A DNA stretch of 64,000 bases, taken from Escherichia coli (lineage in GTDB: Bacteria; Pseudomonadota; Gammaproteobacteria; Enterobacterales; Enterobacteriaceae). The position numbers and the translations under genes were made by a program. Positions 2,689 through 52,744 of this stretch are shown piece after piece. Under the pieces are notes generated by a model. That model was not told where the DNA came from. It saw only the letters and a program-made list of their open reading frames with translations, and made no database searches. The DNA is taken from the NCBI RefSeq assembly GCF_003018235.1, contig NZ_CP027437.1; one strand, 5' to 3'. Position 1 is the first letter of the stretch. Each line of letters starts with the position of its first letter.

Positions 2689-3924
<1,236 letters not shown>

Positions 3925-3928
3925 ATAC

Positions 3929-3978
3929 GACGCATCAGGCAAAAGATGTCGGATGCGGCGCGAACGCTGTATCCGATG
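3929..3978. repeat. REP-like palindromic elements between convergent argD and yhfK
   Basis: cgcatcaggc and tcggatgcggcgcgaacgctgtatccgatg resemble the E. coli REP consensus (GCCGGATGCGGCG...TTATCCGGCC). Confidence 0.45.
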
Positions 3979-3990
3979 GTTTAGCCTGCA

Positions 3991-6081
3991 TTACGCCTTC
4001 GAATCCCGCAACTTGCGACTCAGCCAAATCCCGTGATGCGGTCGCTGACGCCATGCCATCGACGAAATGGTGTGCATGGTGTTCAGATGACCAATAACCC
4101 GCTGTAAATGCTGCTCCAGCGTACCTGCCGCGCCTTCGTGCGGCTGCATCTCCGGCGCATCCATGATATTGGCATCGCCAGAACTACCCGGTTCGTCATA
4201 CTCCAGTCGCTGCTGACAACGCTGAATGGCGATTTCACAAGACTGTAAATACTCTTGTGCCAGTTCAGGTGGCAATGCCCGGTGTTCCCGCGCCAGCGTG
4301 GTCATGGCATTAATATGCTCAACAATAAACTGGCTGTGCGTTACCCACAGTTTCATATCTGCCAGATAATGGCTGTTAAACGCCGGTTCCTGCATCGCCT
4401 GATTCAATGAGTTATACAGAGTGTTATGCGCCTGATTTACCCGCATTCGCTGCCAGGCCAGTGGCGTAGGTTGCGGATCCTCGCTAAGAATCAAGCGAAT
4501 CGCTTCCTGATAGGCTTCTAAAGCGTCATGGGCGTTTTTACGCAATAACCCGCTCTGCCACTGCGGCCACAGCCAGACAGTACCGCCGAAAGCAATTAAA
4601 CAACCAATAATGGTATCGATAAGACGCGGAAGGATGTACTGCTCGCCGTTCAACCACAATAGTTGCAGGGTATACACTGCGGTAATAGTAAAACCGACCG
4701 TCGCCCAGCCGTAGTTTTTGCGCAATATCAGGTAGCTGGCGAGGGTGGTAATCAGCATCAAGGTCAGAGTGTAACCTTCGGGAATTTTAAAGTGCAGGGC
4801 AACGCCCGCAATGATTAACCCGACCACGGTTCCCACGGAGCGATTCACAATCCTCAGACGGGTTGCGCCATAGCCATTTTGCGTCACCAGCAATACCGTC
4901 ATCAGGATCCAGTACGACTTCGGCAGATGCAGCGCGGTGCCCATCAGGCTGGCAACGCTTAACATCACACTGAGTCGTCCGGCATTGCGTAGCGCCGGAG
5001 ACTTTAGTGACAGATAACTTTTCAGCGCCGGAAGTAATGGCATTCGCCGCTGTTTATCGGCCAGTAAGTCACGCGCATAGAGCGGTTTTTGGGTGCGCAG
5101 CACGCGGGCGATGCGGCTGAAATGCCAGTAGCAGAATTGCCCAACCGGATTATCCGGATGCTGGCGGGCGATTTTTTCCAGTGCGCCAATTTGCTTTTCC
5201 ATCGTAAAACGCGTCGGCAGGCGATGGTAAAGAATGTCATCAGCCAGCACGCGCAGGCGAGCGGCGACGGTTTGCGCATTCCAGCGAATAACTTCCTCCG
5301 CATGGCTACGCTCGACCAGCTTTTGCACCTCTTCCGGCTGATGCAAACTGACCGAAATATGTTCCTGCAAATCCAGCGCCTCCTGGAAAATACGCAGCAT
5401 CCGCTTGTAATCGGTATTATTTTGCGCGGAAAGCATATGCATTTGCTGATAGCACTGGGTAATTAGATCGACCGCTTTTTGCTGGCGCACCAGCAGCGGC
5501 GGCAGCGCTTTTTCAGGGTCGGTGTGCTGGGTAAGCAGGCTGTATTTGGCTTCACAATAATCTGCCAGTTCACGGTACAGCAGACTTAGTGACTCGCGCA
5601 GCGGTTGTTCGCGCCAGATCCAGAACCAAAACCAGTTAAACAATCCGTACCAGAGAGTGCCCAACGCATAGATGAGCAACGGTTCCCAGACCGGCATGTA
5701 TCCCGCCAGACTGAGGGTAAAAATGGCGGCGAGCAGCGATGCGGGAAGCAATTTTGCGTGCAATGGCCCCAGCTCAGCAGTGACGCCAAGTACCAGCGTT
5801 AATCCGGTCAGCAAAAAGGGCAGAGGAACATCTTTTGCCAGTAGTAGCTGTGTCAGCAAGCTACAGGTGGCAAACAGCGACGCACCAATGATTAAGCGTT
5901 TGAAAAAACGTTTATGAGGCGTATCAAGGCCCGCAATATTGCAACAAGCAGGAACGAGGGAGAAGAGCAGACCGAATCGTAATTCGCCAAGCATTAACCC
6001 AACGGCCACGGGCAAACATAGCACCAGCGTTTGTCGAAGTGCATAGTTGATATCGGGGTGATAAATCAGCCTGCGCCACAT
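3991..6081 (-). CDS. yhfK: Inner-membrane FUSC-family putative transporter YhfK
   Basis: Multi-TM ORF; track ORF extends to 6093 from a TTG, but the ATG at 6079-6081 (MWRRLIYHP...) lies clear of the crp terminator. Confidence 0.85.
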   Translation of the reverse strand: MWRRLIYHPDINYALRQTLVLCLPVAVGLMLGELRFGLLFSLVPACCNIAGLDTPHKRFFKRLIIGASLFATCSLLTQLLLAKDVPLPFLLTGLTLVLGVTAELGPLHAKLLPASLLAAIFTLSLAGYMPVWEPLLIYALGTLWYGLFNWFWFWIWREQPLRESLSLLYRELADYCEAKYSLLTQHTDPEKALPPLLVRQQKAVDLITQCYQQMHMLSAQNNTDYKRMLRIFQEALDLQEHISVSLHQPEEVQKLVERSHAEEVIRWNAQTVAARLRVLADDILYHRLPTRFTMEKQIGALEKIARQHPDNPVGQFCYWHFSRIARVLRTQKPLYARDLLADKQRRMPLLPALKSYLSLKSPALRNAGRLSVMLSVASLMGTALHLPKSYWILMTVLLVTQNGYGATRLRIVNRSVGTVVGLIIAGVALHFKIPEGYTLTLMLITTLASYLILRKNYGWATVGFTITAVYTLQLLWLNGEQYILPRLIDTIIGCLIAFGGTVWLWPQWQSGLLRKNAHDALEAYQEAIRLILSEDPQPTPLAWQRMRVNQAHNTLYNSLNQAMQEPAFNSHYLADMKLWVTHSQFIVEHINAMTTLAREHRALPPELAQEYLQSCEIAIQRCQQRLEYDEPGSSGDANIMDAPEMQPHEGAAGTLEQHLQRVIGHLNTMHTISSMAWRQRPHHGIWLSRKLRDSKA

Positions 6082-21504: not shown

Positions 21505-22746
<1,242 letters not shown>

Positions 22747-22770
22747 TTACACGTTAATTAGTTTCGAATT

Positions 22771-22797
22771 AAAAAGGGCGCTTCGGCGCCCTTTTTG
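22771..22797 (+). terminator. tufA rho-independent terminator
   Basis: Hairpin gggcgc-ttcg-gcgccc followed by TTTTT. Confidence 0.85.
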
Positions 22798-23037
22798 CAT
22801 TTGTTGACTGCATATCTTATTCGTACTGTCAGAACGAATAAATTATTCATATTTAAAATATAAATTAAATTTAACATCTTAAATATGAATGTTTCTGTTT
22901 TTAAAAAGCTTCTTTTGTCAGGCTTTTTTCTTATTTTTAATGCCGTAATTTAATTCATATTGAAGGGTTCTCGTAAAACGTAAATAATTCCTGCGTAGGA
23001 CTTTTGTTTTGCAGTTTTTACGTCACAAGGGATTATA

Positions 23038-25740
23038 ATGAAATTAAATATATTTACTAAATCTATGATTGGTATGGGGCTGGTGTGTTCCGCTCTGCCA
23101 GCATTGGCAATGGAAGCATGGAATAACCAACAAGGTGGTAATAAATATCAGGTTATTTTCGATGGCAAAATTTATGAAAATGCCTGGTGGGTTTCTTCTA
23201 CAAATTGCCCGGGAAAAGCAAAAGCAAATGATGCAACTAACCCATGGCGTTTAAAGCGTACCGCGACAGCTGCTGAAATTAGTCAGTTTGGCAATACACT
23301 TTCCTGCGAAAAGAGCGGCAGCTCATCTTCTTCAAATTCAAATACGCCTGCATCCAATACGCCGGCTAATGGCGGTTCGGCTACACCAGCACAAGGCACT
23401 GTTCCGTCTAATTCTTCTGTAGTTGCCTGGAATAAACAGCAGGGCGGTCAGACCTGGTATGTTGTCTTTAATGGTGCGGTATATAAAAATGCCTGGTGGG
23501 TAGCCTCTTCTAACTGCCCGGGTGATGCGAAAGGCAATGATGCCAGCAACCCATGGCGTTATGTTCGTGCCGCTACGGCAACGGAAATCTCAGAAACCAG
23601 TAATCCACAGTCCTGTACTTCAGCACCACAGCCTGCGCCGGATGTGAAACCGGCACCGGACGTTAAACCGGCTCCTGATGTTCAGCCAGCCCCAGCTGAT
23701 AAGTCAAACGACAACTATGCTGTCGTAGCCTGGAAAGGTCAGGAAGGTTCTTCTACATGGTACGTTATCTACAACGGCGGCATTTATAAGAACGCCTGGT
23801 GGGTAGGCGCGGCAAATTGCCCAGGCGATGCGAAAGAAAACGATGCCAGCAACCCATGGCGTTATGTTCGCGCGGCAACAGCAACAGAAATCAGCCAGTA
23901 TGGTAACCCAGGCTCCTGTTCCGTTAAGCCGGATAATAATGGCGATGCTGTGACTCCGGTTGATCCAACTCCGGAAACACCGGAAACTCCGGTGACCCCA
24001 ACCCCGGATAACAACGAGCCATCAACACCAGCGGATAGCGGTAACGATTACTCATTGCAAGCGTGGAGCGGCCAGGAAGGTAGCGAAATTTACCATGTCA
24101 TCTTCAATGGTAATATCTATCAGAATGCCTGGTGGGTTGGTTCTGAAGATTGCCCACGTGGCACTAGTGCAGAAAACTCCAATAACCCATGGCGTCTCGT
24201 GCGTACAGCTACCGCTGCGGAAATGAGTCAGTACGGTAACCCGACTACCTGTGAAATTGATAATGGCGGCGTCATTGTTGCGGATGGTTTCCAGGCCAGC
24301 AAAGCGTACAGCGCGGACAGCATCGTAGATTATAACGATGCACATTATAAAACTTCTGTCGATCAAGGCGCATGGGGCTTTGTCCCAGGCGGTGATAACC
24401 CGTGGAAGAAATACGAACCGGCGAAAGCATGGTCCGCATCCACTGTGTACGTGAAAGGTGATCGCGTTGTTGTTGATGGGCAGGCTTATGAAGCGCTGTT
24501 CTGGACGCAAAGTGACAACCCTGCTCTGGTTGCGAACCAAAACGCCACCGGTAGCAATAGCCGCCCGTGGAAGCCGTTAGGTAAGGCTCAGAGCTATAGC
24601 AACGAAGAGCTGAATAATGCGCCGCAGTTTAATCCAGAAACGCTTTATACCAGCGATACGCTGATTCGCTTTAACGGTGCGAACTACATTTCTCAGAGTA
24701 AAGTGCAGAAAGTTTCTCCTTCTGACAGCAACCCGTGGCGTGTTTTTGTTGACTGGACCGGAACCAAAGAACGTGTAGGTACGCCGAAGAAAGCGTGGCC
24801 GAAACACGTTTATGCACCGTATGTTGACTTTACGCTGAATACGATCCCGGATCTGGCTGCGCTGGCTAAGAATCATAACGTCAACCACTTCACGCTGGCG
24901 TTTGTGGTGAGTAAAGATGCGAACACCTGTCTGCCGACATGGGGTACCGCTTACGGTATGCAGAATTACGCTCAGTACAGCAAAATCAAAGCTCTGCGTG
25001 AGGCTGGCGGCGATGTGATGCTGTCTATCGGTGGTGCTAACAACGCTCCGCTGGCTGCTTCCTGTAAGAACGTAGACGATCTGATGCAGCATTATTATGA
25101 CATCGTTGATAACCTGAACCTCAGAGTCCTGGACTTCGATATCGAAGGCACCTGGGTTGCGGATCAGGCATCTATTGAACGCCGTAACCTTGCTGTGAAG
25201 AAAGTGCAGGATAAATGGAAGTCAGAAGGCAAAGATATTGCTATCTGGTACACCTTGCCAATTCTACCGACTGGCCTGACGCCGGAAGGGATGAATGTCC
25301 TGAGCGATGCCAAAGCGAAAGGTGTTGAGCTGGCGGGTGTGAACGTGATGACAATGGACTACGGTAACGCGATTTGTCAGTCTGCAAATACCGAAGGCCA
25401 GAACATTCACGGTAAGTGTGCAACGTCTGCGATTGCCAACCTGCATTCACAATTGAAAGGCCTCCATCCCAACAAGAGCGATGCAGAAATTGACGCTATG
25501 ATGGGTACCACGCCGATGGTTGGCGTGAACGACGTTCAGGGCGAGGTGTTCTATCTCTCTGATGCTCGTCTGGTCATGCAGGATGCGCAGAAGCGTAATC
25601 TCGGTATGGTTGGTATCTGGTCAATCGCGCGCGACCTGCCGGGCGGCACTAACCTGTCTCCGGAATTCCACGGCCTGACTAAAGAACAGGCACCGAAGTA
25701 CGCATTTAGCGAAATCTTCGCGCCGTTTACTAAGCAATAA
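23038..25740 (+). CDS. chiA: Periplasmic/secreted endochitinase ChiA (modular; GH18-like catalytic domain)
   Basis: 900-aa ORF with signal peptide, four ~65-aa repeated modules, Pro/Thr-rich linkers and C-terminal LDFDIEG motif. Confidence 0.9.
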   Translation: MKLNIFTKSMIGMGLVCSALPALAMEAWNNQQGGNKYQVIFDGKIYENAWWVSSTNCPGKAKANDATNPWRLKRTATAAEISQFGNTLSCEKSGSSSSSNSNTPASNTPANGGSATPAQGTVPSNSSVVAWNKQQGGQTWYVVFNGAVYKNAWWVASSNCPGDAKGNDASNPWRYVRAATATEISETSNPQSCTSAPQPAPDVKPAPDVKPAPDVQPAPADKSNDNYAVVAWKGQEGSSTWYVIYNGGIYKNAWWVGAANCPGDAKENDASNPWRYVRAATATEISQYGNPGSCSVKPDNNGDAVTPVDPTPETPETPVTPTPDNNEPSTPADSGNDYSLQAWSGQEGSEIYHVIFNGNIYQNAWWVGSEDCPRGTSAENSNNPWRLVRTATAAEMSQYGNPTTCEIDNGGVIVADGFQASKAYSADSIVDYNDAHYKTSVDQGAWGFVPGGDNPWKKYEPAKAWSASTVYVKGDRVVVDGQAYEALFWTQSDNPALVANQNATGSNSRPWKPLGKAQSYSNEELNNAPQFNPETLYTSDTLIRFNGANYISQSKVQKVSPSDSNPWRVFVDWTGTKERVGTPKKAWPKHVYAPYVDFTLNTIPDLAALAKNHNVNHFTLAFVVSKDANTCLPTWGTAYGMQNYAQYSKIKALREAGGDVMLSIGGANNAPLAASCKNVDDLMQHYYDIVDNLNLRVLDFDIEGTWVADQASIERRNLAVKKVQDKWKSEGKDIAIWYTLPILPTGLTPEGMNVLSDAKAKGVELAGVNVMTMDYGNAICQSANTEGQNIHGKCATSAIANLHSQLKGLHPNKSDAEIDAMMGTTPMVGVNDVQGEVFYLSDARLVMQDAQKRNLGMVGIWSIARDLPGGTNLSPEFHGLTKEQAPKYAFSEIFAPFTKQ

Positions 25741-25747
25741 ATGTGTT

Positions 25748-25779
25748 GGCGATACCTTCCGGTATCGCCGCATTTTTTG
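25748..25779 (+). terminator. chiA rho-independent terminator
   Basis: Hairpin ggcgatacc-ttcc-ggtatcgcc followed by a T run. Confidence 0.75.
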
Positions 25780-25908
25780 TCAATGGGCTACTTTTGGTAG
25801 CCCATTATTTTTATTCATATTTCTATTCTTTGCTTAAAAAAGAGTCTTTCCGTAATTGAAATAAGAACTATTTTCATTTATTTTTGAAGAAAGTATACGG
25901 GAGTCTCT

Positions 25909-26103
25909 ATGTACGTTTGTCTTTGTAATGGTATCAGCGATAAAAAAATTCGTCAGGCTGTGCGCCAGTTTTCCCCCCACTCGTTCCAGCAATTAAAAAA
26001 ATTTATTCCGGTCGGCAATCAGTGCGGTAAATGTGTCCGGGCCGCGCGTGAAGTGATGGAGGATGAATTAATGCAGTTGCCGGAGTTTAAGGAGTCCGCA
26101 TAA
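25909..26103 (+). CDS. bfd: Bacterioferritin-associated ferredoxin
   Basis: 64-aa ORF with 2Fe-2S cysteine pattern (CLC...C...C..C). Confidence 0.9.
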   Translation: MYVCLCNGISDKKIRQAVRQFSPHSFQQLKKFIPVGNQCGKCVRAAREVMEDELMQLPEFKESA

Positions 26104-26174
26104 ACGGAGTGTGTTTTTTGACTTACTCGTAAGCCGTTCTACGCTTCAAAGAGTGGAAGCGAAGGAGTCAAAAA

Positions 26175-26651
26175 ATGAAAGGTGATACTAAAGTTATAAA
26201 TTATCTCAACAAACTGTTGGGAAATGAGCTTGTCGCAATCAATCAGTACTTTCTCCATGCCCGGATGTTTAAAAACTGGGGTCTCAAACGTCTCAATGAT
26301 GTGGAGTATCATGAATCCATTGATGAGATGAAACACGCCGATCGTTATATTGAGCGCATTCTTTTTCTGGAAGGTCTTCCAAACTTACAGGACCTGGGCA
26401 AACTGAACATTGGTGAAGATGTTGAGGAAATGCTGCGTTCTGATCTGGCTCTTGAGCTGGATGGCGCGAAGAATTTGCGTGAGGCAATTGGTTATGCCGA
26501 TAGCGTTCATGATTACGTCAGCCGCGATATGATGATAGAAATTTTGCGTGATGAAGAAGGCCATATCGACTGGCTGGAAACGGAACTTGATCTGATTCAG
26601 AAGATGGGCCTGCAAAATTATCTGCAAGCACAGATCCGCGAAGAAGGTTGA
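26175..26651 (+). CDS. bfr: Bacterioferritin
   Basis: 158-aa ferritin-like ORF. Confidence 0.95.
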
Positions 26652-26679
26652 GCCGTGTCGGGAGGGAGAACCCTCCCGG

Positions 26680-27356
26680 TTAATACGAGATCCAGGCCAG
26701 ATACCCCAAGTTTATCATGCTGCCGAGCGCAAGCCACGGGCCGAATGCGATAGTGGTTATAGTCCGGCGTTGCAGAAGTTGTGAAACGATGGCGTAACCA
26801 ATGCCACCCAGCGAGGCAATCAGCAGTATCATTGGCAACGTTTGCCAGCCACACCATGCGCCTGCAGCGGCCAGTAGCTTGAAATCACCGTAGCCCAATC
26901 CCTCTTTGTGATAAACTAACCAGACGCCCCAGTAAACACACCACAGCACCCCATAGCCAGCTACCGCGCCGTAAACCGCATCATGTAAATCAATTAATCC
27001 AGACTGCGCATTAAATACCAAGCCAAGCCAGAGCAGCGGTAAGGTGAGTTTGTCGGGCAGGAGCTGAGTGCGAAAATCAATAACACTGAGCGTGAGTGCG
27101 AAACAGAAATAGAGAAAGAGTGCGCCAGTCACGATGGGCGTGAAAGGTGCCAGGGCGCAGGCGATAGCAGCAGCAACGCAAAGTATCAGGGGCACTGTAT
27201 CATGCCAGGCATATTTTTTTTGCCTGAAATGAATCAATACCTGGCGAAACGTTAACGCCGTTTTATCCTCCAAAGGCGAGAGGTGATAGGCCATAGCATT
27301 AACAAAATAACCTGCCATAAAACCAACCAGAATGAAGAGCGGCAGTAGCATTGTCA

Positions 27357-27357
<1 letters not shown>
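26680..27357 (-). CDS. gspO: Type IV prepilin peptidase / N-methyltransferase of the type II secretion system
   Basis: 225-aa polytopic membrane ORF; last gene of the gsp operon. Confidence 0.9.
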
Positions 27358-29773
<2,416 letters not shown>

Positions 29774-29777
<4 letters not shown>

Positions 29778-30940
29778 TTCCCTGAGCTCCTTACTGTCCA
29801 TACGCCACTGACCGGATCTTTTTCTGTTTTTTCCATCGGAAGCCAGGGCTGTGCTAATTCACAGAAACGATCGATATTGGCTTCACTCTTAGCACTCATT
29901 TTTAAGGTCAGCGACTTTTGCTTCTGGCTATAGTTCGCCTCCATTAACTGCAGTTCAGGGTGTTCCAGCAGAAGTGTTTGTAAATGATAGAGCAACGGCA
30001 CAGCTTCAGGATATTGCTGAGCGAGTTGCTGCTTAAAGTAAAAACGAAAGTTGTGGGTGCGTTTGATTTGCGGGAAATAACGTTGCCAGGTTTCTTGCTG
30101 TTGTTGCTGAAGTTGATCTTCAATCTTAAGCGTTTGCCAGAGCGCGATGCCCCGGCTGCCAACAAAAGAAAGAATGGCGAGAACGAGACAGCTTACTGCC
30201 AGGCGGGCGAGCCATTTTCCCGATTTGCTTACAGTTTTCTGTTTACGAAAAACACCATGCAGCATGTCATAGCGCTGGAATGCAATATCGGCAGAATACA
30301 AACTCAGTGATGGTATTTCAGGATGCTGGATAAGTGGATTGGTCGCTGCAACGCCGTGAGGTGCTACACCATAACAAAGCATATTCTCAGGCGGAAACTG
30401 GGCAGCAAGATGCTGTAACCAGTGTTCATCCAGTTCATTGAAGGCATGTGCGGCACTGCGAATAAGCCAGCTTGTTTGCTGGTTAACCAGAGTCCAGCTA
30501 TCTCCTTCCCAGGGAAGATAGCAGCCATCTGGCAAAACCCGCGTCACGTTGAGTCCGGCAGTATGTAAACGCTCAAGATAGCGACTGAGTTTCTCCGACT
30601 GAATGCCTATCACCTCGACACTTTCGTTTTGTTTATCGACAACCGTCCAGTGCCAGTCCTGGGTGTTATCGGGTAACGTCTCCTCTGCCAGCCATTGCAA
30701 TGTTTGTGCGGTGAGTTTGTATTTGACGTTGGGCAGCGTGAGGGAACGATATAAAAGGCCCTCTGGTGGGATCAAAAGATGAACATTTCCGGCACCGGGC
30801 TGATCGGCCAGCGACTCCAGCGGAAGATCGTCTGTGAGCGTATGTACCGAAGATACGCTATCTGCGGAGAACGTCATCCATTCCCAATGCTTACGCAGCG
30901 TCGAGGAAGAACGTATGACCATCAACGATTCAGGCATCAC
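29774..30940 (-). CDS. gspL: Type II secretion system protein L
   Basis: 388-aa ORF in conserved gsp order. Confidence 0.9.
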
Positions 30941-30951
30941 GATCCTTATGA

Positions 30952-31935
30952 TTAGTAGAGTTGCAGCGTACGCCGATAGATTTGGGCGCTCTGTTGTTTA
31001 CGGTTGAAAAAAATATGGCTTTGCCATCCCAGGGATTGTTCGTCGCTGATACTTTCCGTACTCAGCGTAAAATAGCGGCTATAGGGAAAGAGATGCCCTT
31101 TCACCTGAGCTACCAGAGGCTTCACGCCGGAGAAATCCTGCTGCGCCCAGTAAAGAAATGCATCCGTGGTTAGCCAGCCTTCCCTCGGCCTTTTTTGCAA
31201 TAAGACCCGAGCGTCAGCATCCGTGATGTTATTGAGGAATAACGCTCTGAAGAGCGGAATATCGTTCTCCGTTAGCATATTAAGATTGATGCTAAGTTCC
31301 GTGGTCGGGAGAACGCAGACATACGGGATAAGCCGCTGATAGATGTTTTCGGTTATGCCTTTTATCTGACGCAATTCGCCGGTCAGAAAAAGCATCTGAT
31401 TGGCACTATGCCGGGGCGGCGTCTGGCTTTGGTAAAAGTTATCTTCTGCGCCGTGAAAGCGTGGTGAGTCATCGACATCAATATAGTCAGCGATTGATTG
31501 CACGATCTCATCGGTGTTTCCGCGATCGATACCGGCGTTAATCAGCAGCGCACTGAATACCTGGGCGGGGAAATCAGGGGAAGCCAGCGGGTCGTCAGAG
31601 ATTTTTGCTAACGCATTGAGATTAAAACAGTGCTGGGCATCGCGTAACTGCCACTTCACTGTATTGCCATTTTCCAGCTGCAACTGTTGCGGTTGTGCCC
31701 AGTACTGCTGCAACGTGGTTTGTCTGTCGTTATCTTTAACGTCCTGGGCGAGGCTGGCAAGCGCAAGTTTCTCCGCCAGTTCAATATCATATTGCCGTTG
31801 CAAATGATGGTTTACCTGGCGGGTTCGCTGAAGCTGGCTGTGAAAACTGAGCGTCATGTCTGCTGCCAGAGCAGCCATGAGCGCCAGTAACATGAGTACA
31901 ATGAGCAGCGCGACGCCGCGTTGTTCATTATTCAT
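30952..31935 (-). CDS. gspK: Type II secretion system minor pseudopilin K
   Basis: 327-aa ORF in conserved gsp order. Confidence 0.9.
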   Translation of the reverse strand: MNNEQRGVALLIVLMLLALMAALAADMTLSFHSQLQRTRQVNHHLQRQYDIELAEKLALASLAQDVKDNDRQTTLQQYWAQPQQLQLENGNTVKWQLRDAQHCFNLNALAKISDDPLASPDFPAQVFSALLINAGIDRGNTDEIVQSIADYIDVDDSPRFHGAEDNFYQSQTPPRHSANQMLFLTGELRQIKGITENIYQRLIPYVCVLPTTELSINLNMLTENDIPLFRALFLNNITDADARVLLQKRPREGWLTTDAFLYWAQQDFSGVKPLVAQVKGHLFPYSRYFTLSTESISDEQSLGWQSHIFFNRKQQSAQIYRRTLQLY

Positions 31936-32515
31936 GGTTATTATTCCCGGCCTGCGTCTGAGCTGGCGACTCTTCTCTCGCTAACTGCTCAGGTAATGCA
32001 AAACGGCGCTGTAACACCCCATATTGCTGAGTCTGCAGATGTAACGTGACTGAGAGAGGAAGTTCCTGGCTTTCCCCGCTGTTACTTTCCAGAAGAAAGC
32101 TCTCGACATGTTCCAGCATCGCCTGGGCGGGTTGATCCTTCCTGCCATCCACAGAAGTACGAACAGCACGGTAGAGCGTATGATTTCGTAGATACCAGTG
32201 AACTGTGAGTAAGGTTTGTGCTTCACTGAGAGGAGCCAGCGGATCACGACTTTGCGTGGTAAAAATAGCTTCTTCACCCAACACCATGATCTTGTCCGTA
32301 CTCCGATTCCTCCGGGCGACCAATTGCAGGAGATCGTTATCAAGAATGGTGATGGTGCGCTGTAGCTGATTGAACTGCTGGATTTCTTTCTGTGAGCGTT
32401 GATGTAGCGTAGACGCTTGCGAAAAAACCATAAACGCCAGCACGCCAAGCATTGAGAAGATCGCCAGCGCCGCCATGACTTCCAGCAATGTGAAACCCTG
32501 TTGGCGATTAATCAT
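31928..32515 (-). CDS. gspJ: Type II secretion system minor pseudopilin J
   Basis: Prepilin-type N-terminus [13 protein letters not shown]; track ORF extends 8 codons upstream to 32539. Confidence 0.88.
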
Positions 32516-32885
32516 CTTGCGCCTGCCCGGATCTATCATGGATGCTCTGATAACGAGTCAGAGCAGTTTTCTGACCGTTGGGTAACATCACCGTTATGGT
32601 GCGTTCCAGAAGCGTGCCGTCTTTGCTTGAATGGACATCGCTGCGCCAGTTCCACTCTTCGCCATTAATTATCTCTTTGCCTGAACTGGACGTGTTTTCA
32701 TCGTTGAATGTATCTTGCGACTTAAGCTGGTTATCTGCGATCCACAGCGCCAGCGTCTCATTACGCATCCGCTCGATGGCATTTCGTTGCCCTTGCATGC
32801 TGCTCATTAAAGCCAGCGCAACAGTGGCGAAAATACTCATCGCCAGTAAGACTTCAAGCAGTGTCATCCCTGATTGTTTGTTCAT
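32508..32885 (-). CDS. gspI: Type II secretion system minor pseudopilin I
   Basis: Prepilin-type N-terminus [12 protein letters not shown]; track ORF extends upstream to 32924. Confidence 0.88.
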
Positions 32886-33391
32886 GGGCGGGTATCTCTG
32901 ACGAGCGTTTGATCCAGGGGCCATGATCCTGAACAGACTAACGTCAGGAGCGGCTCACCGGTCCCGGCGTTAGCCATCAACAAAGAGAAGGGCGTGATTT
33001 GTCCGTCGGCCAGAACCACCACCTGCGGTTGGTTGCTGTCATCAGGTTTAAATGGCTGAAGTTGAATTGAGAGTTCTTCACCCCAGTCATTTTTGCTCTC
33101 GTCTGCGGCATCTTCTTGTAATGGAACCCAGCGCCAGGCTGATGGTGTTTTGCCCGGTACCATAATGCGCCATGCTGAATCAGAGAAATGGATACCGACA
33201 GGCTGACCACTGAGCGTGGCGCGGTCGATGGCTAATTCAAGTGCAGCGGTAAACCGCGCCGCTGTTTCGCGCGCACGAGTGCTGGCGGTATCTTCCCGAC
33301 CATATGTGAAGAGCACCACACTTGCCGTGATAGCGACCAGCGCCAGCACCAGCATCATCTCCAGCAGGGTAAACCCGCGTTGCTGATTCAT
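32882..33391 (-). CDS. gspH: Type II secretion system minor pseudopilin H
   Basis: 169-aa ORF with [13 protein letters not shown] prepilin N-terminus. Confidence 0.9.
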
Positions 33392-33398
33392 CGCTGAC

Positions 33399-33836
33399 TT
33401 ACTTTTTCTTCTTGCTCAAACCCCAGTTGGTGATGTCATCCTCGGTTCCCATTTCACCATCGGGTCCTGCTGAAAGCAGATCGTATGCACCATGTTCACC
33501 AGGATTAACGAGGACATAATCATTGCCCCAGGGATCGGCAGGCAGACGCTTGATATAACCTTCCTTGTTATAGTTTGCGGCCAGCGGTGGCAGTGTCGGC
33601 GCTTCTACTAAGGATTCAAGCCCCTGATTTGTGGTTGGATAGCGATGATTGTCGAGCTTGTACATATCCAGGGCGTTTTCCAGCGCCACAATATCGCTGA
33701 CGGCTTTTTGTTTATCCGCCTTTTCTTTATTGCCCATCAGGTTGGGAACCACCAGGCTGGCGAGTACGCCAATGATGACAATTACCACCATAATTTCCAG
33801 TAATGTAAAACCGCGTTGCTTATCCGTTGCGCGCAT
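33399..33836 (-). CDS. gspG: Type II secretion system major pseudopilin G
   Basis: 145-aa ORF with [13 protein letters not shown] prepilin N-terminus. Confidence 0.93.
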   Translation of the reverse strand: MRATDKQRGFTLLEIMVVIVIIGVLASLVVPNLMGNKEKADKQKAVSDIVALENALDMYKLDNHRYPTTNQGLESLVEAPTLPPLAANYNKEGYIKRLPADPWGNDYVLVNPGEHGAYDLLSAGPDGEMGTEDDITNWGLSKKKK

Positions 33837-33845
33837 ATGATTTCC

Positions 33846-35042
33846 TTAATTAATCATTGAGTTAAGTTGAAGAAGAGGTTGGAGTACCGACACGACAATA
33901 AACAGGACGATCAGTGCCATCGTAATAATGAGTGCTGGCTCGAAGATGGAGAGCGTTAAGGCGATCCGATTTTGTTGGAGTGTCTCCTGGTTATCTGCGG
34001 CTCTGACCATTAACGTGCCGAGTTGCCCGCTTTTTTCGCCAGAGGCCACCATGTAGAGCATCATCGGCGGGAAAATTGCGGTTTGTTCCAGCGAAAGATG
34101 AATGCTGTTACCCTGCCGAACGTTTTCTGCCGCATTTGCCAGACGCTGGCGGATTTCGAGGTTGCTGAGACTTTCGGTGGACAAATTCATCCCATCCAGC
34201 AGAGGGACGCCGCTGGATTGCAAAATACTTAAAGTGCGGAGATAGCGTGCGCTGTTAATGGCGCAAATCAGCGGGCCGATGAGTGCAACGCGCAGCAACA
34301 TGGCATGAAAACGGTGGCGGTTATTGCCGCGTTTTAACCAGAGCCAGAAACCTACAGCGACAATAAACACTGTCGCTAGTAATGTCGGGCCGGTACGTTG
34401 CAACGTGTCGCTCAGACCTAAAAGAATGCGTGTACTCAGCGGCAGTTGCTGCTTCATATGCACGAACTGTTCGGTAATTTTGGGCACGACAGCAGTGAGG
34501 AGAATAATCACGACCACAATCGCCACCGCAGTCAGCATGCAGGGGTAGATCAGCGACTGAATGAGCTTGCTGCGGATTTTCTGCCGGTTTTCATTGTAAT
34601 CAGCCAGCTTTTCCAACACCGGGGCCAGCAGCCCGCTCTTTTCGCCCGCTTTAACCAGGGTACGATAGAGCGAATCGAAAAGCGTGGGAAAATGTTGTAA
34701 CGCATCGGAAAGGGGATGCCCTTCAAGGATGGCGCTGCGTACCTGATTTAACACATCAGCCAGTCGTTTATTACTGCTTTGTTGACCGATTACGGCAAGG
34801 CTCTCTTCCAGAGGTAATGCCGCTGCGCTTAAGGTTGCCAACTGCCGGGTGAAAAGCGTCAGTTCACTATGGCTGATCCTCGGGCGACGTGTTTTTACTC
34901 CCGAACTTTTTTGGGGGCGAATATCCAGCAGGAAAAGCCCTTCTTCACGCAGCCGCAGTCGTGCCTGACGTTCATCGTTAGCATCAATGATCCCTTGCAA
35001 TTTTTGACCATCCTGGGTCATGGCGCGATAGCGATAATTCAT
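33846..35042 (-). CDS. gspF: Type II secretion system inner-membrane platform protein F
   Basis: 398-aa polytopic ORF. Confidence 0.93.
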
Positions 35043-36520
35043 GCTTCGCTCTCCAGCGTGGCACTGGCGACGCGCATAACCTCATCCCAGGAGGTGTCAC
35101 CGCTTATCACTTTTTGCAGGCCATTTTTGATTAAGGCATTGTGTTGTTGCCGGACTAGTCGCTCCAGTGTTTGTTCATCCACATTTTCATGAATAGCGGC
35201 CCGCAATTCCGGCGTCACCACCATCATTTCGTGGATCGCCATGCGCCCCTGATAGCCGGATTGATGGCAATGAGGGCAGCCTACGGGAGTGCCAATTGCT
35301 GTCACCGCGAGCTGATGATATTTAAACATCTGCGCTTGTTGGGGTGATACGGGCGTGAATTGTCGGCATTGCGGACACAGGCGACGAACCAGACGTTGCG
35401 CGATAATCCCTGCCAGTGAAGACGAAAGCAGGAATGATTCGACGCCCATGTCGCGTAGCCGGGTGACTGCGCCTGATGCACTGTTGGTGTGGAGTGTTGA
35501 GAGCACCAGATGGCCGGTGAGCGAGGCCTGAACCGCAATTTGCGCGGTTTCTGTATCACGAATCTCCCCCACCATGACGACATCCGGGTCCTGGCGAAGT
35601 ATGGCGCGCAGGCCGCGAGCGAAAGACATATCGACGCGGGTATTCACCTGCGTTTGTCCTATGCCTTCCAGTTCATATTCCACGGGATCTTCTATCGTCA
35701 GAATATTACGGCCAGGGGTATTAAGCGCCGAAAGAATGGCGTAGAGCGTGGTGCTTTTACCGGAGCCTGTCGGCCCTGTCACCAGGATAATACCGTGCGG
35801 AAGCTGAATGAGATTTTCTAAATCCTGCTTATCCGCTGCCGTCATCCCCAGGTTGTTCAATGAAAGCTGGAGGCTGTTTTTATCCAGCAGGCGGAGCACG
35901 GCACGTTCACCATAGATGAACGGCAGTGTGGATACGCGGACATCTATGTTACGTCGCCCGATACGCAAACTAATTCTTCCATCCTGTGGAATACGTTTTT
36001 CGGCGATATCAAGACGAGCCATGACCTTAATTCGGGAGATAAGCAGTGCCGCCAGTTTTTTGTTTGGCTGTAAAATTGTCCGCAAAACGCCGTCGATGCG
36101 AAAACGGATCGACATTGTTTTTTCATAGGTTTCAATGTGGATATCGGAGGCGGTTTCTTTGATGGCCTCACTCAAAATCGCATTGATCAAGCGGATAACG
36201 GGTGCCGCTGAATCTTCATTCAGCAGATCTTCATTTGCGGGCATCTCTTCCGAAAGCGAGAGAAGATCGACGGATTGATCGATATCCTGCGCAATCTGTT
36301 GTGACTCACCGGTATTCTGATGGAATACCGCTTCCAGTCGGGCTTCAAAATCAGCCTGTGACAAGCTGGTCATGGTCTGGCACTGGCCAACCTGACGTTG
36401 AATATCGAGTAACCGTTCGAATGGCGTATCGGCGAGATAAATAATCTCGCCCTCTGAATAGAGATAGCCAATTCGCTGTGCCAGCGCCCAACTGGCGGGG
36501 TACGGTGAGTGAATTCTCAT
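35039..36520 (-). CDS. gspE: Type II secretion system ATPase E
   Basis: 493-aa ORF with Walker [10 protein letters not shown] and CxxC...CxxC zinc motif. Confidence 0.95.
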
Positions 36521-36529
36521 AAGAATGCC

Positions 36530-38482
36530 TTACCGTGCCGATGGCGCAGGGGGATGGCTGTTGAACGTGTTCTCATCCAGCACCGGCAAATCTTCCGAGC
36601 CTACCAGCGCTTTTGATTTCCCGTCGATCCGCTGTTGTTGCTCCTGGCGGTAGCGGGTGTATTTCTCTTTTGACAACGAGCGATAAACATCATCGTCACG
36701 GATAATCGTCGGACGGATAAATACCATCAGGTTGCGTTTAGCGCGCTCGGTCGAGGTATAGCGGAAGAGTTGCCCCACTAAAGGAATATCGCCAAGCAGA
36801 GGAACCTTTGACACTTGCTCTTTAGAAAAATCATCCAGCAATCCGCCCAGGACCACCGTTTCACCGGTTTTAACCAGCACGGCGTTTTGAATAGTACGGG
36901 TATTAAACGTCGGGCCGAGCGTCGAATTAGACGAAGAGTCAACGCTGGAGACTTCCTGCTCTATTTCGAGCAACACCGCGTCGCCTTCATTGACCTGCGG
37001 AGTGACTTTGAGTTTTGTGCCCACCGTTTTGCGTTCGACGGTATTAAAGACGTTATCGCCTGAAGTGGTCTGTGACCCGGATAGCACCGGCACATCCTGG
37101 CCAACGTTGAAGGACGCGAGTTTATTATCCAGCGTTACGATGCTTGGGGTGGCGAGGATGTCATTTTTATTGTTACTGGCCAGCGCAGTCAACAATACGC
37201 CCCAGTCGCCATTGAAGAAGCCTGCGGCCATGCCATTGTAGGCGCTAAACATATCCCAGGCAGGATTCGCGCTGGTGATCCCACCATTCTTTTTATAATC
37301 AGCCACACCTTGCGCAGCGTTAAAAATCGGTAATCCGGTATTGGTAAATTGCTGTGCGCCAACGTTTTTATTCGCCCATTGCACGCCGAGGTTAAGTCCA
37401 TTTCCATCCTGAACTTCAACGATAATTGCCTCAACCAGCACCTGTGCACGGCGAATGTCCAGACGCGCAATTACCGTGGCGAGTTTTTCCTGGACGGACT
37501 GGTCAGCGGTAATGACCAGAGAGTTAGTCTGTTCATCGGCGGTAATGGCGACGTTATCCATCGCGCCAGAAGAGGAGGGCTTACGCTCATTCCCTTTTTC
37601 ATCTTTCAGCTTTTCGGAAACACCGGTTAGCACTTCCACCAGATTCGTGGCTTTAGCATATTTCAGGTAATAGACCCGGGTATTTCCTTCCTCGCTCTCT
37701 TCTACATCAAGGCTTTTCAGTAATGAAGCGATGCGCTGGCGTGCTTTTTCCGGCCCGCTGATGATAAGAGAGTTGGTTCGCTTATCCGCCACAATCTTCG
37801 CGGAGAGGAGGGCTGGCATCTGGCTTTTACCGTGGCTTTCGCTGATTAATTGATTAAGAATCTCGGCGAGATCTTCCGCTGACGCATATTCCAGATGAAT
37901 AATTTGCTGCTTCTCTGTGCCGATGACATCAACGCGCTTTATGACTTCAATCAGTTTATTAATGGTGGAGGCACGACCGGTCAGAATAAGAACGTTGGAG
38001 GGTTCATAATGCACAACATTACCGACGCTACCCGCATCCATCATCTGGCGCAGCAGGGGAGCCAGGTCACGAGCAGGAACGTTCTCAAGCGGTACGATTC
38101 GGGTGACCAATTCATCACCAGCGCCAGGACGAGAACTATCAGCAATCATCCCTGGCGATGTTTTTACATTAGCTGAGCGCACCACTTTCAGAAAACCATT
38201 GTCCAGCGTGATCACGGAATAACCGTAAAGATCAAGAATACTTAAAAAGAACTGGTAGTACTCCTGTTGGCTAAACGTATCATTACTGCGTACGGAAATG
38301 GTTCCCTGTACCGAAGGGTCGATCAGGATCGTTTTGCCAAGATGCTGACCCACTATTTCCACGAACTGGCGGATATCGGCGTTATTGAAGTTAGCGCCGT
38401 ATTGTTCGTTCTCAGCGTGCCCTGCACAAGGCATGAGTAGTGCTGCCAGCAAGCAGCAGGTGATTTTATTGAGTCCTTTCAT
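36530..38482 (-). CDS. gspD: Type II secretion system outer-membrane secretin D
   Basis: Secretin ORF with signal peptide; ATG at 38480-38482 (MKGLNK...) gives 650 aa, an alternative ATG at 38494 gives 654 aa. Confidence 0.93.
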
Positions 38483-39281
38483 GACGCTGTCCATTCATTC
38501 CTGTAAGTTCCGCGACGGAAACATTTATCAAGCGGGGTACGCCGTTGCGACGAATTGTAAACTGAGCACTTTGTTGAGTTAGCAGTAAACTTAATGCCTG
38601 TGAAACCTCATCAGGGTGGGTCAGCGAAAGATTATTGATCCTGAGGGCGATATCCCCTGGTTGTAGCAAGCTGGTGGTAAATGCATTGAGGCCCTTACGA
38701 GGGTTCAATCGAAGCCCGTATATCTGTTCTCCATCACGTATAGGCGTGGCGATAATATAATCAGCGAGTACATTTTGACTTTCCGAATCAGGCTGCTTGA
38801 TGATGTCAGGTAGCCCTGGATGGAGAGTTACTTTTTCGTAATGTCCGTGAGTTTCAAACACAACGCTGGTTTTATTTATTTTTCTAATAAACGTTCCTGG
38901 CGCTGACTCAAGGGCTTCGTTGAGGGAGTATCGCTTTTGTTCGCTCCCCTCATTAATTAAGACAAAAGAAGTCTCATCATTCGATGTGAGTACAATGCCA
39001 TTAAGCGCTATAGAGAGCTTCGGTGTTTCCTGATTAACTGCCACGGGATTTGCATCTTTTACCCCAGCATGATTTTCGTTACGCCATAAAGCGGCAAGGC
39101 TGAACTCAGACTGAAATGCGTTTGTTGGTTGATTAATGATCTGTCCATTTTTAACTATAGTTGTATGGAAATAATTCACATTAAAAATAATCAACCCTAT
39201 GCTTATAAATATAATCAATATATTGATGGCAGCATCTTTATTATGATTCGCCAGATGGAAGGGGAAACGTAGTGTGGGCAC
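38466..39281 (-). CDS. gspC: Type II secretion system protein C
   Basis: 271-aa ORF, first gene of the minus-strand gsp operon. Confidence 0.9.
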
Positions 39282-39460
39282 GATGTATGTTCTAATAAAA
39301 TAGATTGGGTGGGTTGTATATTGACGTTAGTATAAATAGTATTAATGCCGCTTGCATGAATCAAGCAAAATTTATTTATATTAGTAATATGTATTTAATT
39401 AATAAATGCATACATTATTTTTATGATTAAGGATAATCAATAATTAAAACAGGAAGTTCT

Positions 39461-40930
39461 ATGTCTACGAGAAGAGAAGTTATTCTTTCCTGGTTGCGTG
39501 AGAAACGTCAGACCTGGCGTCTGTGCTATTTGTTGGGTGAGGCTGGAAGTGGAAAAACCTGGTTGGCGCAGCAACTACAAAAAGATAAACATCGCCGTGT
39601 GATTACTTTAAGCCTCGTTGTTTCCTGGCAAGGTAAGGCCGCATGGATCGTTACCGACGATAACGCGGCTAAACAGGGCTGCCGTGACAGCGCCTGGACG
39701 CGAGATGAGATGGCGGGGCAATTACTGCATGCGCTTCATCGAACTGATAGTCGCTGCCCTCTTATTATTATTGAAAATGCTCACCTGAATCACCGCCGCA
39801 TACTTGATGATCTCCAACGCGCGATATCTCTTATTCCTGACGGTCAATTTTTGCTGATCGGCAGACCCGATCGAAAAGTCGAACGTGATTTTAAAAAACA
39901 GGGCATTGAACTTGTCTCGACAGGACGTCTGACGGAGCACGAACTTAAGGCAAGCATCCTTGAAGGTCAGAATATTGACCAACCCGATCTCCTTTTAACC
40001 GCCAGAGTTCTGAAACGGATAGCTTTATTATGTCGGGGCGATCGCAGAAAGCTGGCGCTTGCCGGCGAAACAATTCGCTTATTACAGCAAGCCGAGCAGA
40101 CCAGCGTTTTCACAGCAAAACAATGGCGAATGATTTACCGCATATTGGGTGATAACCGCCCCCGGAAAATGCAGCTTGCCGTGGTGATGAGTGGAACCAT
40201 TATCGCTCTTACCTGTGGTTGGCTACTGCTGTCCTCTTTTACAGCTCCGCTACCCGTTCCTGCGTGGCTGATACCCGTAACGCCAGTAGTTAAACAAGAT
40301 ATGACTAAGGATATTGCTCATGTGGTGATGCGCGATAGTGAGGCGCTAAGCGTGTTATACGGCGTATGGGGGTACGAGGTCCCAGCCGATTCGGCCTGGT
40401 GCGATCAGGCAGTAAGAGCGGGGCTGGCATGTAAAAGTGGGAATGCTTCTTTACAAACATTGGTAGATCAGAATTTGCCCTGGATCGCATCGCTTAAAGT
40501 CGGGGACAAAAAATTGCCTGTTGTGGTCGTTCGCGTCGGTGAGGCTACCGTTGATGTCCTCGTAGATCAGCAAACCTGGACTCTGACACATAAATGGTTT
40601 GAGTCGGTATGGACGGGTGATTATCTTCTGTTGTGGAAAATGTCGCCGGAAGGGGAGAGTACCATTACGCGTGATAGCAGCGAGGAAGAGATTCTCTGGC
40701 TGGAAACGATGTTAAACCGTGCATTGCATATTTCGACAGAACCTTCGGCGGAGTGGCGTCCCTTGTTGGTAGAAAAAATAAAGCAATTTCAAAAAAGCCA
40801 CCACTTGAAAACTGACGGTGTTGTTGGCTTTTCAACGTTAGTACATCTCTGGCAGGTGGCAGGGGAGAGTGCCTACTTATATCGGGATGAAGCAAATATT
40901 TCCCCGGAAACAACAGTGAAGGGGAAATGA
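39461..40930 (+). CDS. gspA: Type II secretion accessory ATPase-like protein GspA
   Basis: 489-aa ORF with Walker A GEAGSGKT, divergent from gspC. Confidence 0.88.
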   Translation: MSTRREVILSWLREKRQTWRLCYLLGEAGSGKTWLAQQLQKDKHRRVITLSLVVSWQGKAAWIVTDDNAAKQGCRDSAWTRDEMAGQLLHALHRTDSRCPLIIIENAHLNHRRILDDLQRAISLIPDGQFLLIGRPDRKVERDFKKQGIELVSTGRLTEHELKASILEGQNIDQPDLLLTARVLKRIALLCRGDRRKLALAGETIRLLQQAEQTSVFTAKQWRMIYRILGDNRPRKMQLAVVMSGTIIALTCGWLLLSSFTAPLPVPAWLIPVTPVVKQDMTKDIAHVVMRDSEALSVLYGVWGYEVPADSAWCDQAVRAGLACKSGNASLQTLVDQNLPWIASLKVGDKKLPVVVVRVGEATVDVLVDQQTWTLTHKWFESVWTGDYLLLWKMSPEGESTITRDSSEEEILWLETMLNRALHISTEPSAEWRPLLVEKIKQFQKSHHLKTDGVVGFSTLVHLWQVAGESAYLYRDEANISPETTVKGK

Positions 40931-40931
40931 C

Positions 40932-41351
40932 ATGTTTGAATTCTATATCGCCGCGCGTGAGCAGAAAGAAACAGGTCACCCTGGTATCTTCTCCCGACAA
41001 AAACACAGCACCATAATATATGTCATTTGTTTATTGCTGATTTGCCTGTGGTTTGCAGGAATGGTGTTGGTTGGTGGGTATGCCAGGCAGCTATGGGCGC
41101 TTTGGATAGTAAAAGCAGAAGTCACAGTAGATGCTGAAACGCCTGCTTTTAAACAATCAACACAACACTATTTCTTCAAAAAACAGCCACTCCCCGTCGT
41201 CGAATCCGTCGAGGAGGAAGATGACCCAGGCGTCGCGGTTGAGAATGCCACCTCTTCTTCTGAAGACGAAGAAAATACTGTAGAAGAAAGCGACGAGAAA
41301 GCCGGTTTAAGAGAGCGTGTCAAAAATGCGCTGAACGAACTTGAGAGATAA
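40932..41351 (+). CDS. gspB: Type II secretion accessory protein GspB
   Basis: 139-aa ORF with one TM segment and acidic C-terminus. Confidence 0.85.
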   Translation: MFEFYIAAREQKETGHPGIFSRQKHSTIIYVICLLLICLWFAGMVLVGGYARQLWALWIVKAEVTVDAETPAFKQSTQHYFFKKQPLPVVESVEEEDDPGVAVENATSSSEDEENTVEESDEKAGLRERVKNALNELER

Positions 41352-41383
41352 CCCGAAAGCTGTTTACTTTACTAGCAATACGC

Positions 41384-41411
41384 TTGCGTTCGGTGGTTAA
41401 GTATGTATAAT
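41384..41411 (+). promoter_or_regulatory. S10 operon sigma-70 promoter
   Basis: TTGCGT at 41384-41389, 16-bp spacer, TATAAT at 41406-41411. Confidence 0.6.
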
Positions 41412-52288: not shown

Positions 52289-52378
52289 AGCCAGCCAATC
52301 TTTTGTATGTCTGTGCGTTTCCATTTGAGTATCCTGAAAACGGGCTTTTCAGCATGGAACGTACATATTAAATAGTAG

Positions 52379-52744
<366 letters not shown>

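Follow-up and report, generated by a model that had tools for sequence, protein, structure and literature searches.

The type II secretion (gsp) genes and the chitinase gene chiA of Escherichia coli are preceded by stretches of DNA far richer in A and T than their surroundings, and this raises the question of what such DNA does at these two places and where it came from. The initial annotation of this locus took it to fit silencing by an H-NS-type nucleoid protein and a horizontally acquired origin. Here we examined both readings in a 64-kb window, that is, the whole stretch of DNA analysed, which spans the E. coli chromosome from tsgA to tsaC.

Gene map of the chiA-gsp locus

Gene names were taken from the RefSeq annotation of ETEC1738, a pig ETEC and the closest complete genome, and from K-12, and were mapped onto the window by BLAST. 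ETEC1738 is 99.9% identical to the window across the gspC-gspA junction. tufA (21562-22746) is followed by its intrinsic terminator hairpin (22770-22797, + strand), the last base of which borders a variable segment on the left. Next come chiA (23038-25740, + strand, ATG at 23038), annotated as a bifunctional chitinase/lysozyme, bfd (25909-26103), bfr (26175-26651) and gspO (26680-27357, - strand). gspM is split at 27752/29707 by a 1954-bp IS100 element of the IS21 family (istA/istB; 27753-29706, + strand) with a 5-bp target duplication, GAGAG, and is followed by gspL to gspD. gspC (38466-39281, - strand), the first gene of gspC-O, has a GTG start at 39281 and the lowest GC content among the genes of the window (42.4%; GC3 38.6%). 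On its other side lie gspA (39461-40930, + strand), which has its ATG at 39461, encodes 489 aa and is the first gene of gspAB, then gspB (40932-41351) and rpsJ (41589 onwards). The gspA start at 39461 is backed by 489-aa orthologues with a conserved start region; the closest RefSeq record has the start at 39521.

The gene set is that of the K-12 'alpha' type II secretion system, with gspC-M and gspO, the accessory gspAB and chiA nearby, gspM being interrupted. ChiA is exported via the gsp type II secretion system (PMC5797941, PMC3032704). The IS100 copy in gspM is not present in K-12 or ETEC1738, and since it disrupts gspM, regulation of the secretion system may have lost functional weight in this strain. 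An Rfam scan of the whole window gave a sole match, Alpha_RBS at 52309-52420, and none in the AT-rich intervals.

Two AT islands precede chiA and the gsp operons

The gspC/gspA divergent spacer (39282-39460; 179 bp) is the exact gap between the two start codons and has a GC content of 23.5% (42/179). The interval upstream of chiA (22798-23037; 240 bp) occupies all of the DNA between the tufA terminator hairpin and the chiA ATG and has a GC content of 26.7% (64/240). To set these values in context, we used the intergenic regions and the sliding windows of the 64-kb window as background. The two islands ranked first and second for lowest GC among 30 intergenic regions of at least 40 bp, the remaining 28 having a mean GC of 44.4% (sd 7.2; pooled 43.5%). 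Binomial P values at p=0.435 were 1.8e-8 for the gsp spacer and 5.0e-8 for the chiA upstream region. Only 33 of 63,822 sliding windows of 179 bp had a GC content of 23.5% or less, and every one lay at one of these two places. The adjoining ribosomal and metabolic genes have a GC content of 49-55%. The GC content of neither island thus falls within the window-wide intergenic average, and the contrast drawn by the initial annotation between AT-rich islands and GC-balanced neighbours was borne out. Both islands have an AT content far above the intergenic average of the window over at least 150 bp, as is looked for in H-NS-silenced promoters.

The four strongest AT segments of the window (22837-23070, 25804-25897, 39147-39224 and 39286-39449) are all found around chiA and gsp. 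The segment at 22837-23070 is the AT core of the chiA island and continues into chiA. That at 39147-39224 (17.9% GC) lies in the 5' coding part of gspC and is a downstream extension of the gsp island, and that at 25804-25897 (19.1% GC) is a third AT island in the spacer that follows chiA and precedes bfd. AT-richness enters the coding sequence at every codon position: the first 330 nt of gspC have a GC3 of 0.345 and the first 150 nt of chiA one of 0.34, compared to 0.56 in core genes.

The long A/T runs described from the sequence were confirmed, A/T-only runs reaching 17 nt within the gsp spacer and 26 nt in the chiA upstream region, and the gsp spacer contains 29 TpA steps in its 179 bp. The repeated TTAAAT and TATAAA motifs described with them did not withstand comparison with composition-matched shuffles, against which their counts are at chance: TTAAAT is absent and TATAAA occurs once in the gsp spacer, and TTAAAT occurs twice and TATAAA once upstream of chiA. 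The sole word above such shuffles was TAAAT upstream of chiA (five copies; uncorrected P=0.005). Small ORFs in the islands were just short, chance-like ones, such as a 22-aa ORF at 22885-22953.

Predicted promoters and regulator sites lie within the islands

Divergent sigma-70 promoters are predicted in the gsp spacer. The promoter of gspC-O (39364-39336, - strand) consists of TTGATT (39364-39359), a 17-nt spacing and TACTAT (39341-39336). The promoter of gspAB (39399-39427, + strand), predicted by a consensus scan, consists of TTAATA, a 17-nt spacing and TATGAT. Both hexamer pairs are given for this spacer in the RpoD genomic SELEX study of Shimada et al., which also marks an HNS site there (PMC3946193). 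A SlyA site, TTATATTAGTAA (39376-39387, + strand), was proposed 79 bp upstream of gspA on the basis of consensus similarity (Curran et al., PMC5797941).

Upstream of chiA, the scan identified a promoter at 22960-22988 (+ strand; TTGAAG, 17 nt, AATAAT). The transcription start of chiA presumably corresponds to about position 22996 of the window, assuming a shift of +1977 between the K-12 versions, and would then lie 7-8 nt past the -10 hexamer. This start was confirmed at position 3467918 of NC_000913, in the older numbering, by Salscheider et al. (PMC3950696). The same region contains copies of ATTCATATTTAA at 22845-22856 (+ strand), at 22879-22890 (- strand) and, with one mismatch, at 22953-22964 (+ strand), where the third copy overlaps the -35 hexamer of chiA. 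The perfect 12-nt inverted repeat of ATTCATATTTAA has a P of ~0.003 relative to shuffles, and copies with at most one mismatch occur nowhere else in the 64 kb.

Probable H-NS silencing of gsp and chiA

The islands differ from those of K-12 MG1655 at 1/179 positions in the gsp spacer and 6/240 positions upstream of chiA, and because of this near-identity the experiments performed in K-12 apply to the islands of the window. The gspC-O operon is described as cryptic and under repression by H-NS, with chiA as a further gene silenced by this protein, and gspCDEF was H-NS-associated in the K-12 ChIP data sets of Kahramanoglou and Oshima (PMC5797941). SlyA bound a 179-bp gsp fragment in EMSA with an apparent Kd of ~50-100 nM, and its over-production raised gspCDEF expression 2.4-fold (PMC5797941). 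We mapped the EMSA primers of that study to 39282-39307 and 39438-39460, which makes the 179-bp SlyA probe identical to the interval 39282-39460; the spacer has therefore already been in use as a binding probe in the literature. An IPOD-HR preprint reports a prominent protein-occupancy peak in the gspA-gspC spacer, which is the sole prominent peak left in the ribosomal-operon region after subtraction of RNA polymerase (10.1101/2020.01.29.924811). Expression of chiA in a delta-hns stpA strain was high and equal to that in a strain with constitutive BglJ, and BglJ-RcsB activates chiA, possibly by relieving H-NS repression (PMC3950696).

To look for H-NS sites in the window, we used a matrix derived from eleven published sites (Lang et al., Table 1 of PMC2094087). 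The densest 300-bp stretch of matches in the window was at 39139-39438. It includes the palindrome TCAATATATTGA (39215-39226), each half of which is a predicted site matching 9/10 positions of the high-affinity H-NS site of proV, TCGATATATT. Matches to the matrix (tCGATAAATT-like) were above the window background and equal in number to those in composition-matched shuffles, so that the motif counts demonstrate nothing beyond AT content. Curvature, calculated with a wedge model, did not set the islands apart. The gsp spacer was at the 86th percentile and is not predicted to be curved, and the chiA upstream and chiA-bfd regions reached the 99.9th percentile but were matched by many equally high peaks in coding DNA.

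Collectively, these results suggest that the two intervals are, with high probability, the regulatory regions of a co-regulated pair, gsp and chiA, and act as AT-rich H-NS loading sites that silence both. The silencing claimed by the initial annotation is supported by the K-12 papers together with the near-identity of the islands to K-12. That H-NS silences gsp and chiA is already known for E. coli and has been in the literature since 2000; the K-12 work, as cited in PMC5797941 and PMC3950696, comprises Francetic & Pugsley 1996 and two papers by Francetic et al. 2000, in EMBO J and Mol Microbiol. The H-NS-silenced gsp (T2SS-alpha) and chiA genes of K-12 have the same locus, gene order, promoters and SlyA site as those of the window. 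The window strain differs from K-12 by the IS100 in gspM and by a ChiA of 900 aa rather than 897 aa.

A proposed mechanism of coordinated silencing

The gsp spacer contains the predicted divergent promoters of gspAB and gspC-O, which encode the K-12-type 'alpha' T2SS, and the chiA island contains the promoter of its substrate. At both places the extreme AT content may favour the loading of H-NS, together with StpA. H-NS would nucleate on AT-rich, TpA-rich DNA, for example at the palindrome TCAATATATTGA. At gsp, the AT-rich DNA measures ~300 bp and takes in the 5' ~330 nt of gspC; the AT-rich DNA at chiA extends from about -160 to +75 relative to the transcription start. Filaments spreading from there across the -35 and -10 elements would keep the genes silent in laboratory conditions. 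As at proU or bgl, the spacer may also be bridged to the AT segment inside gspC. Repression would be lifted by counter-silencers, with SlyA acting on the gsp spacer and BglJ-RcsB on chiA. A single protein that reads composition and acts on both the machine and its substrate could thereby provide coordinated control that needs no shared specific operator.

This arrangement resembles that of proU and bgl, which have upstream and downstream H-NS elements. gsp likewise combines an AT-rich promoter with an AT-rich stretch in the first gene (39147-39224), and a 9/10 match to the proV high-affinity site is found inside the gspC AT stretch. In comparison with proU and bgl, the downstream element of gsp is a candidate predicted from sequence, and the motif density at gsp is explained by composition alone. 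E. coli also has a second type II secretion operon. According to the title of a 2007 reference that is cited in the H-NS-silencing papers, it is transcriptionally regulated; it appears to be a paralogous cluster at another chromosomal site with another substrate (SslE/YghJ, LT).

The low-GC feature is maintained in other genera

We used Bfr to scan a single genome of each species and compared the interval from tufA to rpsJ in Enterobacterales. The interval was found in three states. In the first, it contains bfd-bfr only (Pantoea, Serratia, Proteus, Xenorhabdus and others). In the second, bfd-bfr is accompanied by an orphan prepilin peptidase (Kluyvera, Pluralibacter, some Citrobacter and others). 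In the third, bfd-bfr is followed by the full gsp cluster, sometimes with chiA in front, as in Yokenella, Chimaeribacter, Enterobacter sichuanensis, Citrobacter braakii and amalonaticus, Trabulsiella, Kosakonia oryziphila, Rahnella and the MAG UBA5654. The closest relative of the window locus is that of UBA5654, in which GspD is 84% and ChiA 72% identical; the UBA5654 contig matches a contig listed by NCBI under the name Superficieibacter.

In 4/4 chiA-bearing loci of other genera, the 150-bp window with the lowest GC in the whole locus was directly upstream of chiA (GC 0.21-0.25). We reached four orthologous gspA/gspC loci through GspC homologues (46-76% identical in GspC). Their spacers have a GC of 0.24-0.345, and in all four the lowest-GC window fell on the spacer or on the 5' end of gspC (GC 0.23-0.30). 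The core of the gspC promoter, TTGATT/TAnTAT, and the start regions of gspC and gspA are conserved in the four orthologous spacers. One of these loci, L087, is a divergent E. coli allele; it is 86% identical to the window in the spacer, compared to 73% in the 5' part of gspC, 78% in gspA and 74% in gspB. The recurrence of low GC at the same positions in orthologues indicates that the feature is maintained across lineages and is no local accident, and this conservation in other genera is one part of what the present analysis adds to the known silencing. The AT-richness may have been kept by selection for silencing.

Upstream of chiA, by contrast with its composition, the sequence itself is not conserved across genera: the alignment is essentially unalignable, with 58% column identity and many gaps, so no conserved operator can be defined. 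This bears on the proposal that the AT-rich DNA is kept mainly for specific regulators (SlyA, LeuO, BglJ-RcsB, Fur at bfd, or a dimer binding ATTCATATTTAA) and that H-NS is incidental. The binding of SlyA to the 179-bp fragment, the activation of chiA by BglJ-RcsB and the perfect inverted repeat of ATTCATATTTAA, with its third copy over the -35 hexamer, are in keeping with this proposal. However, the papers cast SlyA and BglJ-RcsB as antagonists of H-NS repression rather than as alternatives to it. A BglJ-RcsB box was not found at chiA, and mutation of a predicted motif ~150 bp upstream had no effect (PMC3950696). The conservation of composition only upstream of chiA fits a protein that reads composition better than one that is sequence-specific. 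We therefore consider it unlikely that specific regulators are the main reason for the AT-richness, but it is possible that they act in addition to H-NS.

A second proposal is that the AT-richness is the ordinary composition of promoters and intergenic DNA, with UP elements, -10 regions and easy melting, and that silencing is unneeded to explain it. Intergenic DNA in the window is indeed AT-richer than coding DNA (pooled GC 41.5% vs 50.5%), and the short pabA-argD spacer (85 bp) likewise goes down to 29.4% GC. Nevertheless, the islands are 2.5-2.9 sd below the 28 other spacers, among them those with the strong promoters of str, S10, spc and alpha, and 179-bp windows as poor in GC were found nowhere else in the 64 kb. 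The AT-richness also runs for hundreds of bases into coding DNA at synonymous positions, and the published data are of repression rather than of strong constitutive activity. Ordinary composition is on these grounds a very improbable explanation, and silencing by H-NS is the preferred reading of the islands.

The chiA-gsp haplotype and its origin

The variable segment that carries chiA-bfd-bfr-gspO..gspC and gspAB (haplotype A; 22799-41404) measures 16,647 bp without the IS and has a GC content of 48.8%. Its borders are sharp, at 22798/22799 and 41404/41405. Of 5426 complete E. coli genomes, 3144 have the tufA-chiA junction and 3152 the gspC-gspA junction (about 58%); in all other genomes the match ends at 22798, at the close of the tufA terminator. 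In O157:H7 and a urine isolate, the interval consists of tufA, bfd, bfr, a gene for a 155-aa peptidase and rpsJ, and homology to the window restarts within the S10 promoter, at 41405. The window is homologous to the bfd promoter region of this other haplotype from 25855 on. There is no AT island in the alternative E. coli haplotype, which has neither chiA nor gsp, and its spacers have a GC content of 39% and 45.5%.

The bfd-bfr genes of the alternative haplotype are 77.5% identical to those of the window, compared to 99-100% in the flanks. The 155-aa peptidase has ~41% protein identity to the GspO of haplotype A, as measured on locus L007, whose GspO is 98% identical to that of the window. These values argue against gsp-less strains being simple deletion derivatives, and the 'gspO-rpsJ deletion' to which the E. 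coli W genome paper ascribes the lack of these genes does not fit the haplotype data. The short arrangement was also found in genomes with proteins that NCBI names E. marmotae and Salmonella enterica, and the nucleotide identity of the short-haplotype bfd/bfr follows the species tree (92-94% for the E. marmotae type, 85-88% for the Salmonella type). The alternative E. coli, E. marmotae-type and Salmonella-type genes are 85-94% identical among themselves. In contrast, bfd/bfr of the window are 76-80% identical to all three and 81-82% to those of UBA5654, and in the same comparison the flanking tufA, rpsJ and rplC are 95-100% identical. The bfd-bfr genes of the window lie outside the Escherichia-Salmonella clade. 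These comparisons support the conclusion that the chiA-gsp haplotype, with its own bfd-bfr, came from outside this clade and probably replaced a native block.

Horizontal acquisition, as proposed in the initial annotation, thus gains support from a presence/absence polymorphism with sharp borders and from the phylogenetic incongruence of bfd/bfr, but not from the AT-richness on which it had been based. The coding GC of the segment is native-like (chiA 50.3%, gspD-O 49-55%; segment 48.8% vs 50-52% in the flanks), and just gspC (42.4%) and gspB (45.7%) are low-GC genes. The coding DNA of the segment therefore does not have an atypical base composition by which a horizontal origin would be shown, and the AT islands, taken alone, do not mark the segment as foreign. 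No tRNA gene was found in the window, no integrase in its annotation and no direct repeats flanking the segment. In the table of PMC5797941, as far as the entry for gspCDEF is concerned, no genomic-island flag is given.

Since the segment is of foreign origin and the chiA island starts exactly at its left border (22798/22799), the islands might be passive scars of transfer, that is, junctions or leftover foreign DNA with no regulatory role, but this is very improbable: the gsp island is 2 kb inside the segment and away from its borders, the right border (41404/41405) is not AT-rich (gspB-rpsJ spacer, 44.7% GC), promoters sit within the islands, low GC recurs at the same positions in orthologues from several genera, conservation extends to the core of the gspC promoter and is higher in the spacer than in the flanking genes, and an integrase, a tRNA gene and flanking direct repeats are all absent.

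Silencing by H-NS through the islands, combined with a foreign origin of the segment, recalls the xenogeneic silencing of AT-rich islands such as the Salmonella pathogenicity islands, since chiA-gsp is likewise foreign and H-NS-silenced. Unlike in the Salmonella pathogenicity islands, AT-richness in chiA-gsp is limited to the regulatory islands and gspC, and the bulk of the coding DNA has a host-like GC content (48.8% vs 50-52%). In further contrast to them, chiA-gsp has no mobility genes and replaced a homologous native block between two ribosomal-protein operons.

We tentatively propose that the chiA-gsp segment could be a foreign 16.6-kb cassette that entered by homologous recombination anchored in the ribosomal operons (str and S10), with its AT islands serving as a portable 'built-in silencer' between genera; we regard this as conceivable, though we would not yet favour it. 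As the composition upstream of chiA is kept while its sequence turns over, such a cassette would arrive pre-silenced in any H-NS-bearing host.

Raw sequence alone thus sufficed to recognize the DNA that controls both a silent secretion system and the protein it exports. In a mastitis pan-genome study, bfd and bfr are given as accessory genes with strain frequencies equal to those of gsp and chiA, and the replacement haplotype explains why the accessory status of these two genes is linked to gsp and chiA in pan-genome studies. If the proposed origin is true, chiA-bfd-bfr-gsp would be an import over the native bfd-bfr-peptidase block in E. coli, rather than an ancestral state that was lost by deletion.

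Haplotypes of the tufA-rpsJ interval

The tufA-rpsJ interval of E. coli occurs as two haplotypes, represented by positions 22799-41404 of the window and by positions 6200-7731 of L004, a locus without chiA and gsp. The chiA-bfd-bfr-gsp haplotype was found in ~58% of complete E. coli genomes; the other is composed of bfd-bfr and an orphan 155-aa peptidase. The short haplotype is termed a deletion in the literature. However, bfd-bfr, which is common to both haplotypes, is merely 77.5% identical between them, and the version in the window falls outside the Escherichia-Salmonella clade. These comparisons indicate that the two haplotypes are related by replacement rather than by deletion.

A third E. 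coli allele, the divergent gsp locus L087 (positions 1930-4816, GCA_012400105.1), was compared with window positions 38466-41351. The gspC, gspA and gspB genes of the two alleles are 74-79% identical in DNA and 61-76% in protein, gspD and gspE are 92-93% identical, and from window position 41400 onwards the identity is 100%. The AT-rich gspC/gspA spacer is 86% identical, which is above the value for the genes on both sides.

AT-rich spacers and upstream repeats

The extent of the gspC/gspA spacer depends on the start codon assigned to gspA. For ETEC1738, the closest complete genome, RefSeq (PGAP) places the start at the equivalent of 39521 (470 aa), whereas in K-12 and four orthologues it lies at 39461 (489 aa), where the start region is conserved. 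The purine-rich stretch AGGAAG is located immediately 5' of 39461. The apparent spacer is therefore 179 bp with the start at 39461 and 239 bp with the start at 39521.

Upstream of chiA, the 12-mer ATTCATATTTAA is present in three copies (22845-22856, 22879-22890 and 22953-22964) and nowhere else in the 64 kb. Two copies form a perfect inverted pair with 22 nt between them (P ~0.003 versus shuffles), and the third, with one mismatch, lies over the -35 hexamer of the chiA promoter. K-12 retains these copies; in other genera they are not conserved. The first copy is positioned ~150 bp 5' of the chiA start site; mutation of a predicted BglJ-RcsB motif at about 150 bp from this site was without effect (PMC3950696).

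A third AT island (25804-25897, 19% GC) lies in the chiA-bfd spacer, and curvature is predicted to peak there at 25836. Since the homology with the other haplotype's bfd promoter starts within this island, at 25855, part of it pertains to bfd control. The only further spacer below 30% GC in the window is the 85-bp pabA-argD spacer (2619-2703, 29.4%). An Rfam scan of the 64-kb window gave a sole match at the gathering threshold, Alpha_RBS upstream of rpsM (52309-52420, 102.7 bits), and no family at this threshold for the S10, spc and str leaders.

Variation in chiA and the gsp genes

The N-terminal half of ChiA contains several reiterated 'AWxxQQGG...NPWR' modules, and among these lies an internal 108-nt repeat of chiA with 83% identity (23482-23589 and 23785-23892). 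Relative to ETEC1738, gspJ and gspI (31928-32885) are 92.5% and 90.3% identical and the adjoining gsp genes 97-100%, suggesting a minor-pseudopilin patch that is recombined or fast-evolving. The gspG gene (33399-33836) is intact in the window as a 145-aa ORF; that of ETEC1738 carries a pseudogene annotation, with an internal stop.

The gspM gene is split at 27752/29707 by a 1954-bp IS100 element (27753-29706; IS21 family, istA/istB) flanked by a 5-bp target duplication, GAGAG. This insertion is absent from K-12 and ETEC1738, and a query spanning it was covered to at least 80% in 16 complete genomes. Because gspM is split, the type II secretion system of the window strain is probably inactive.
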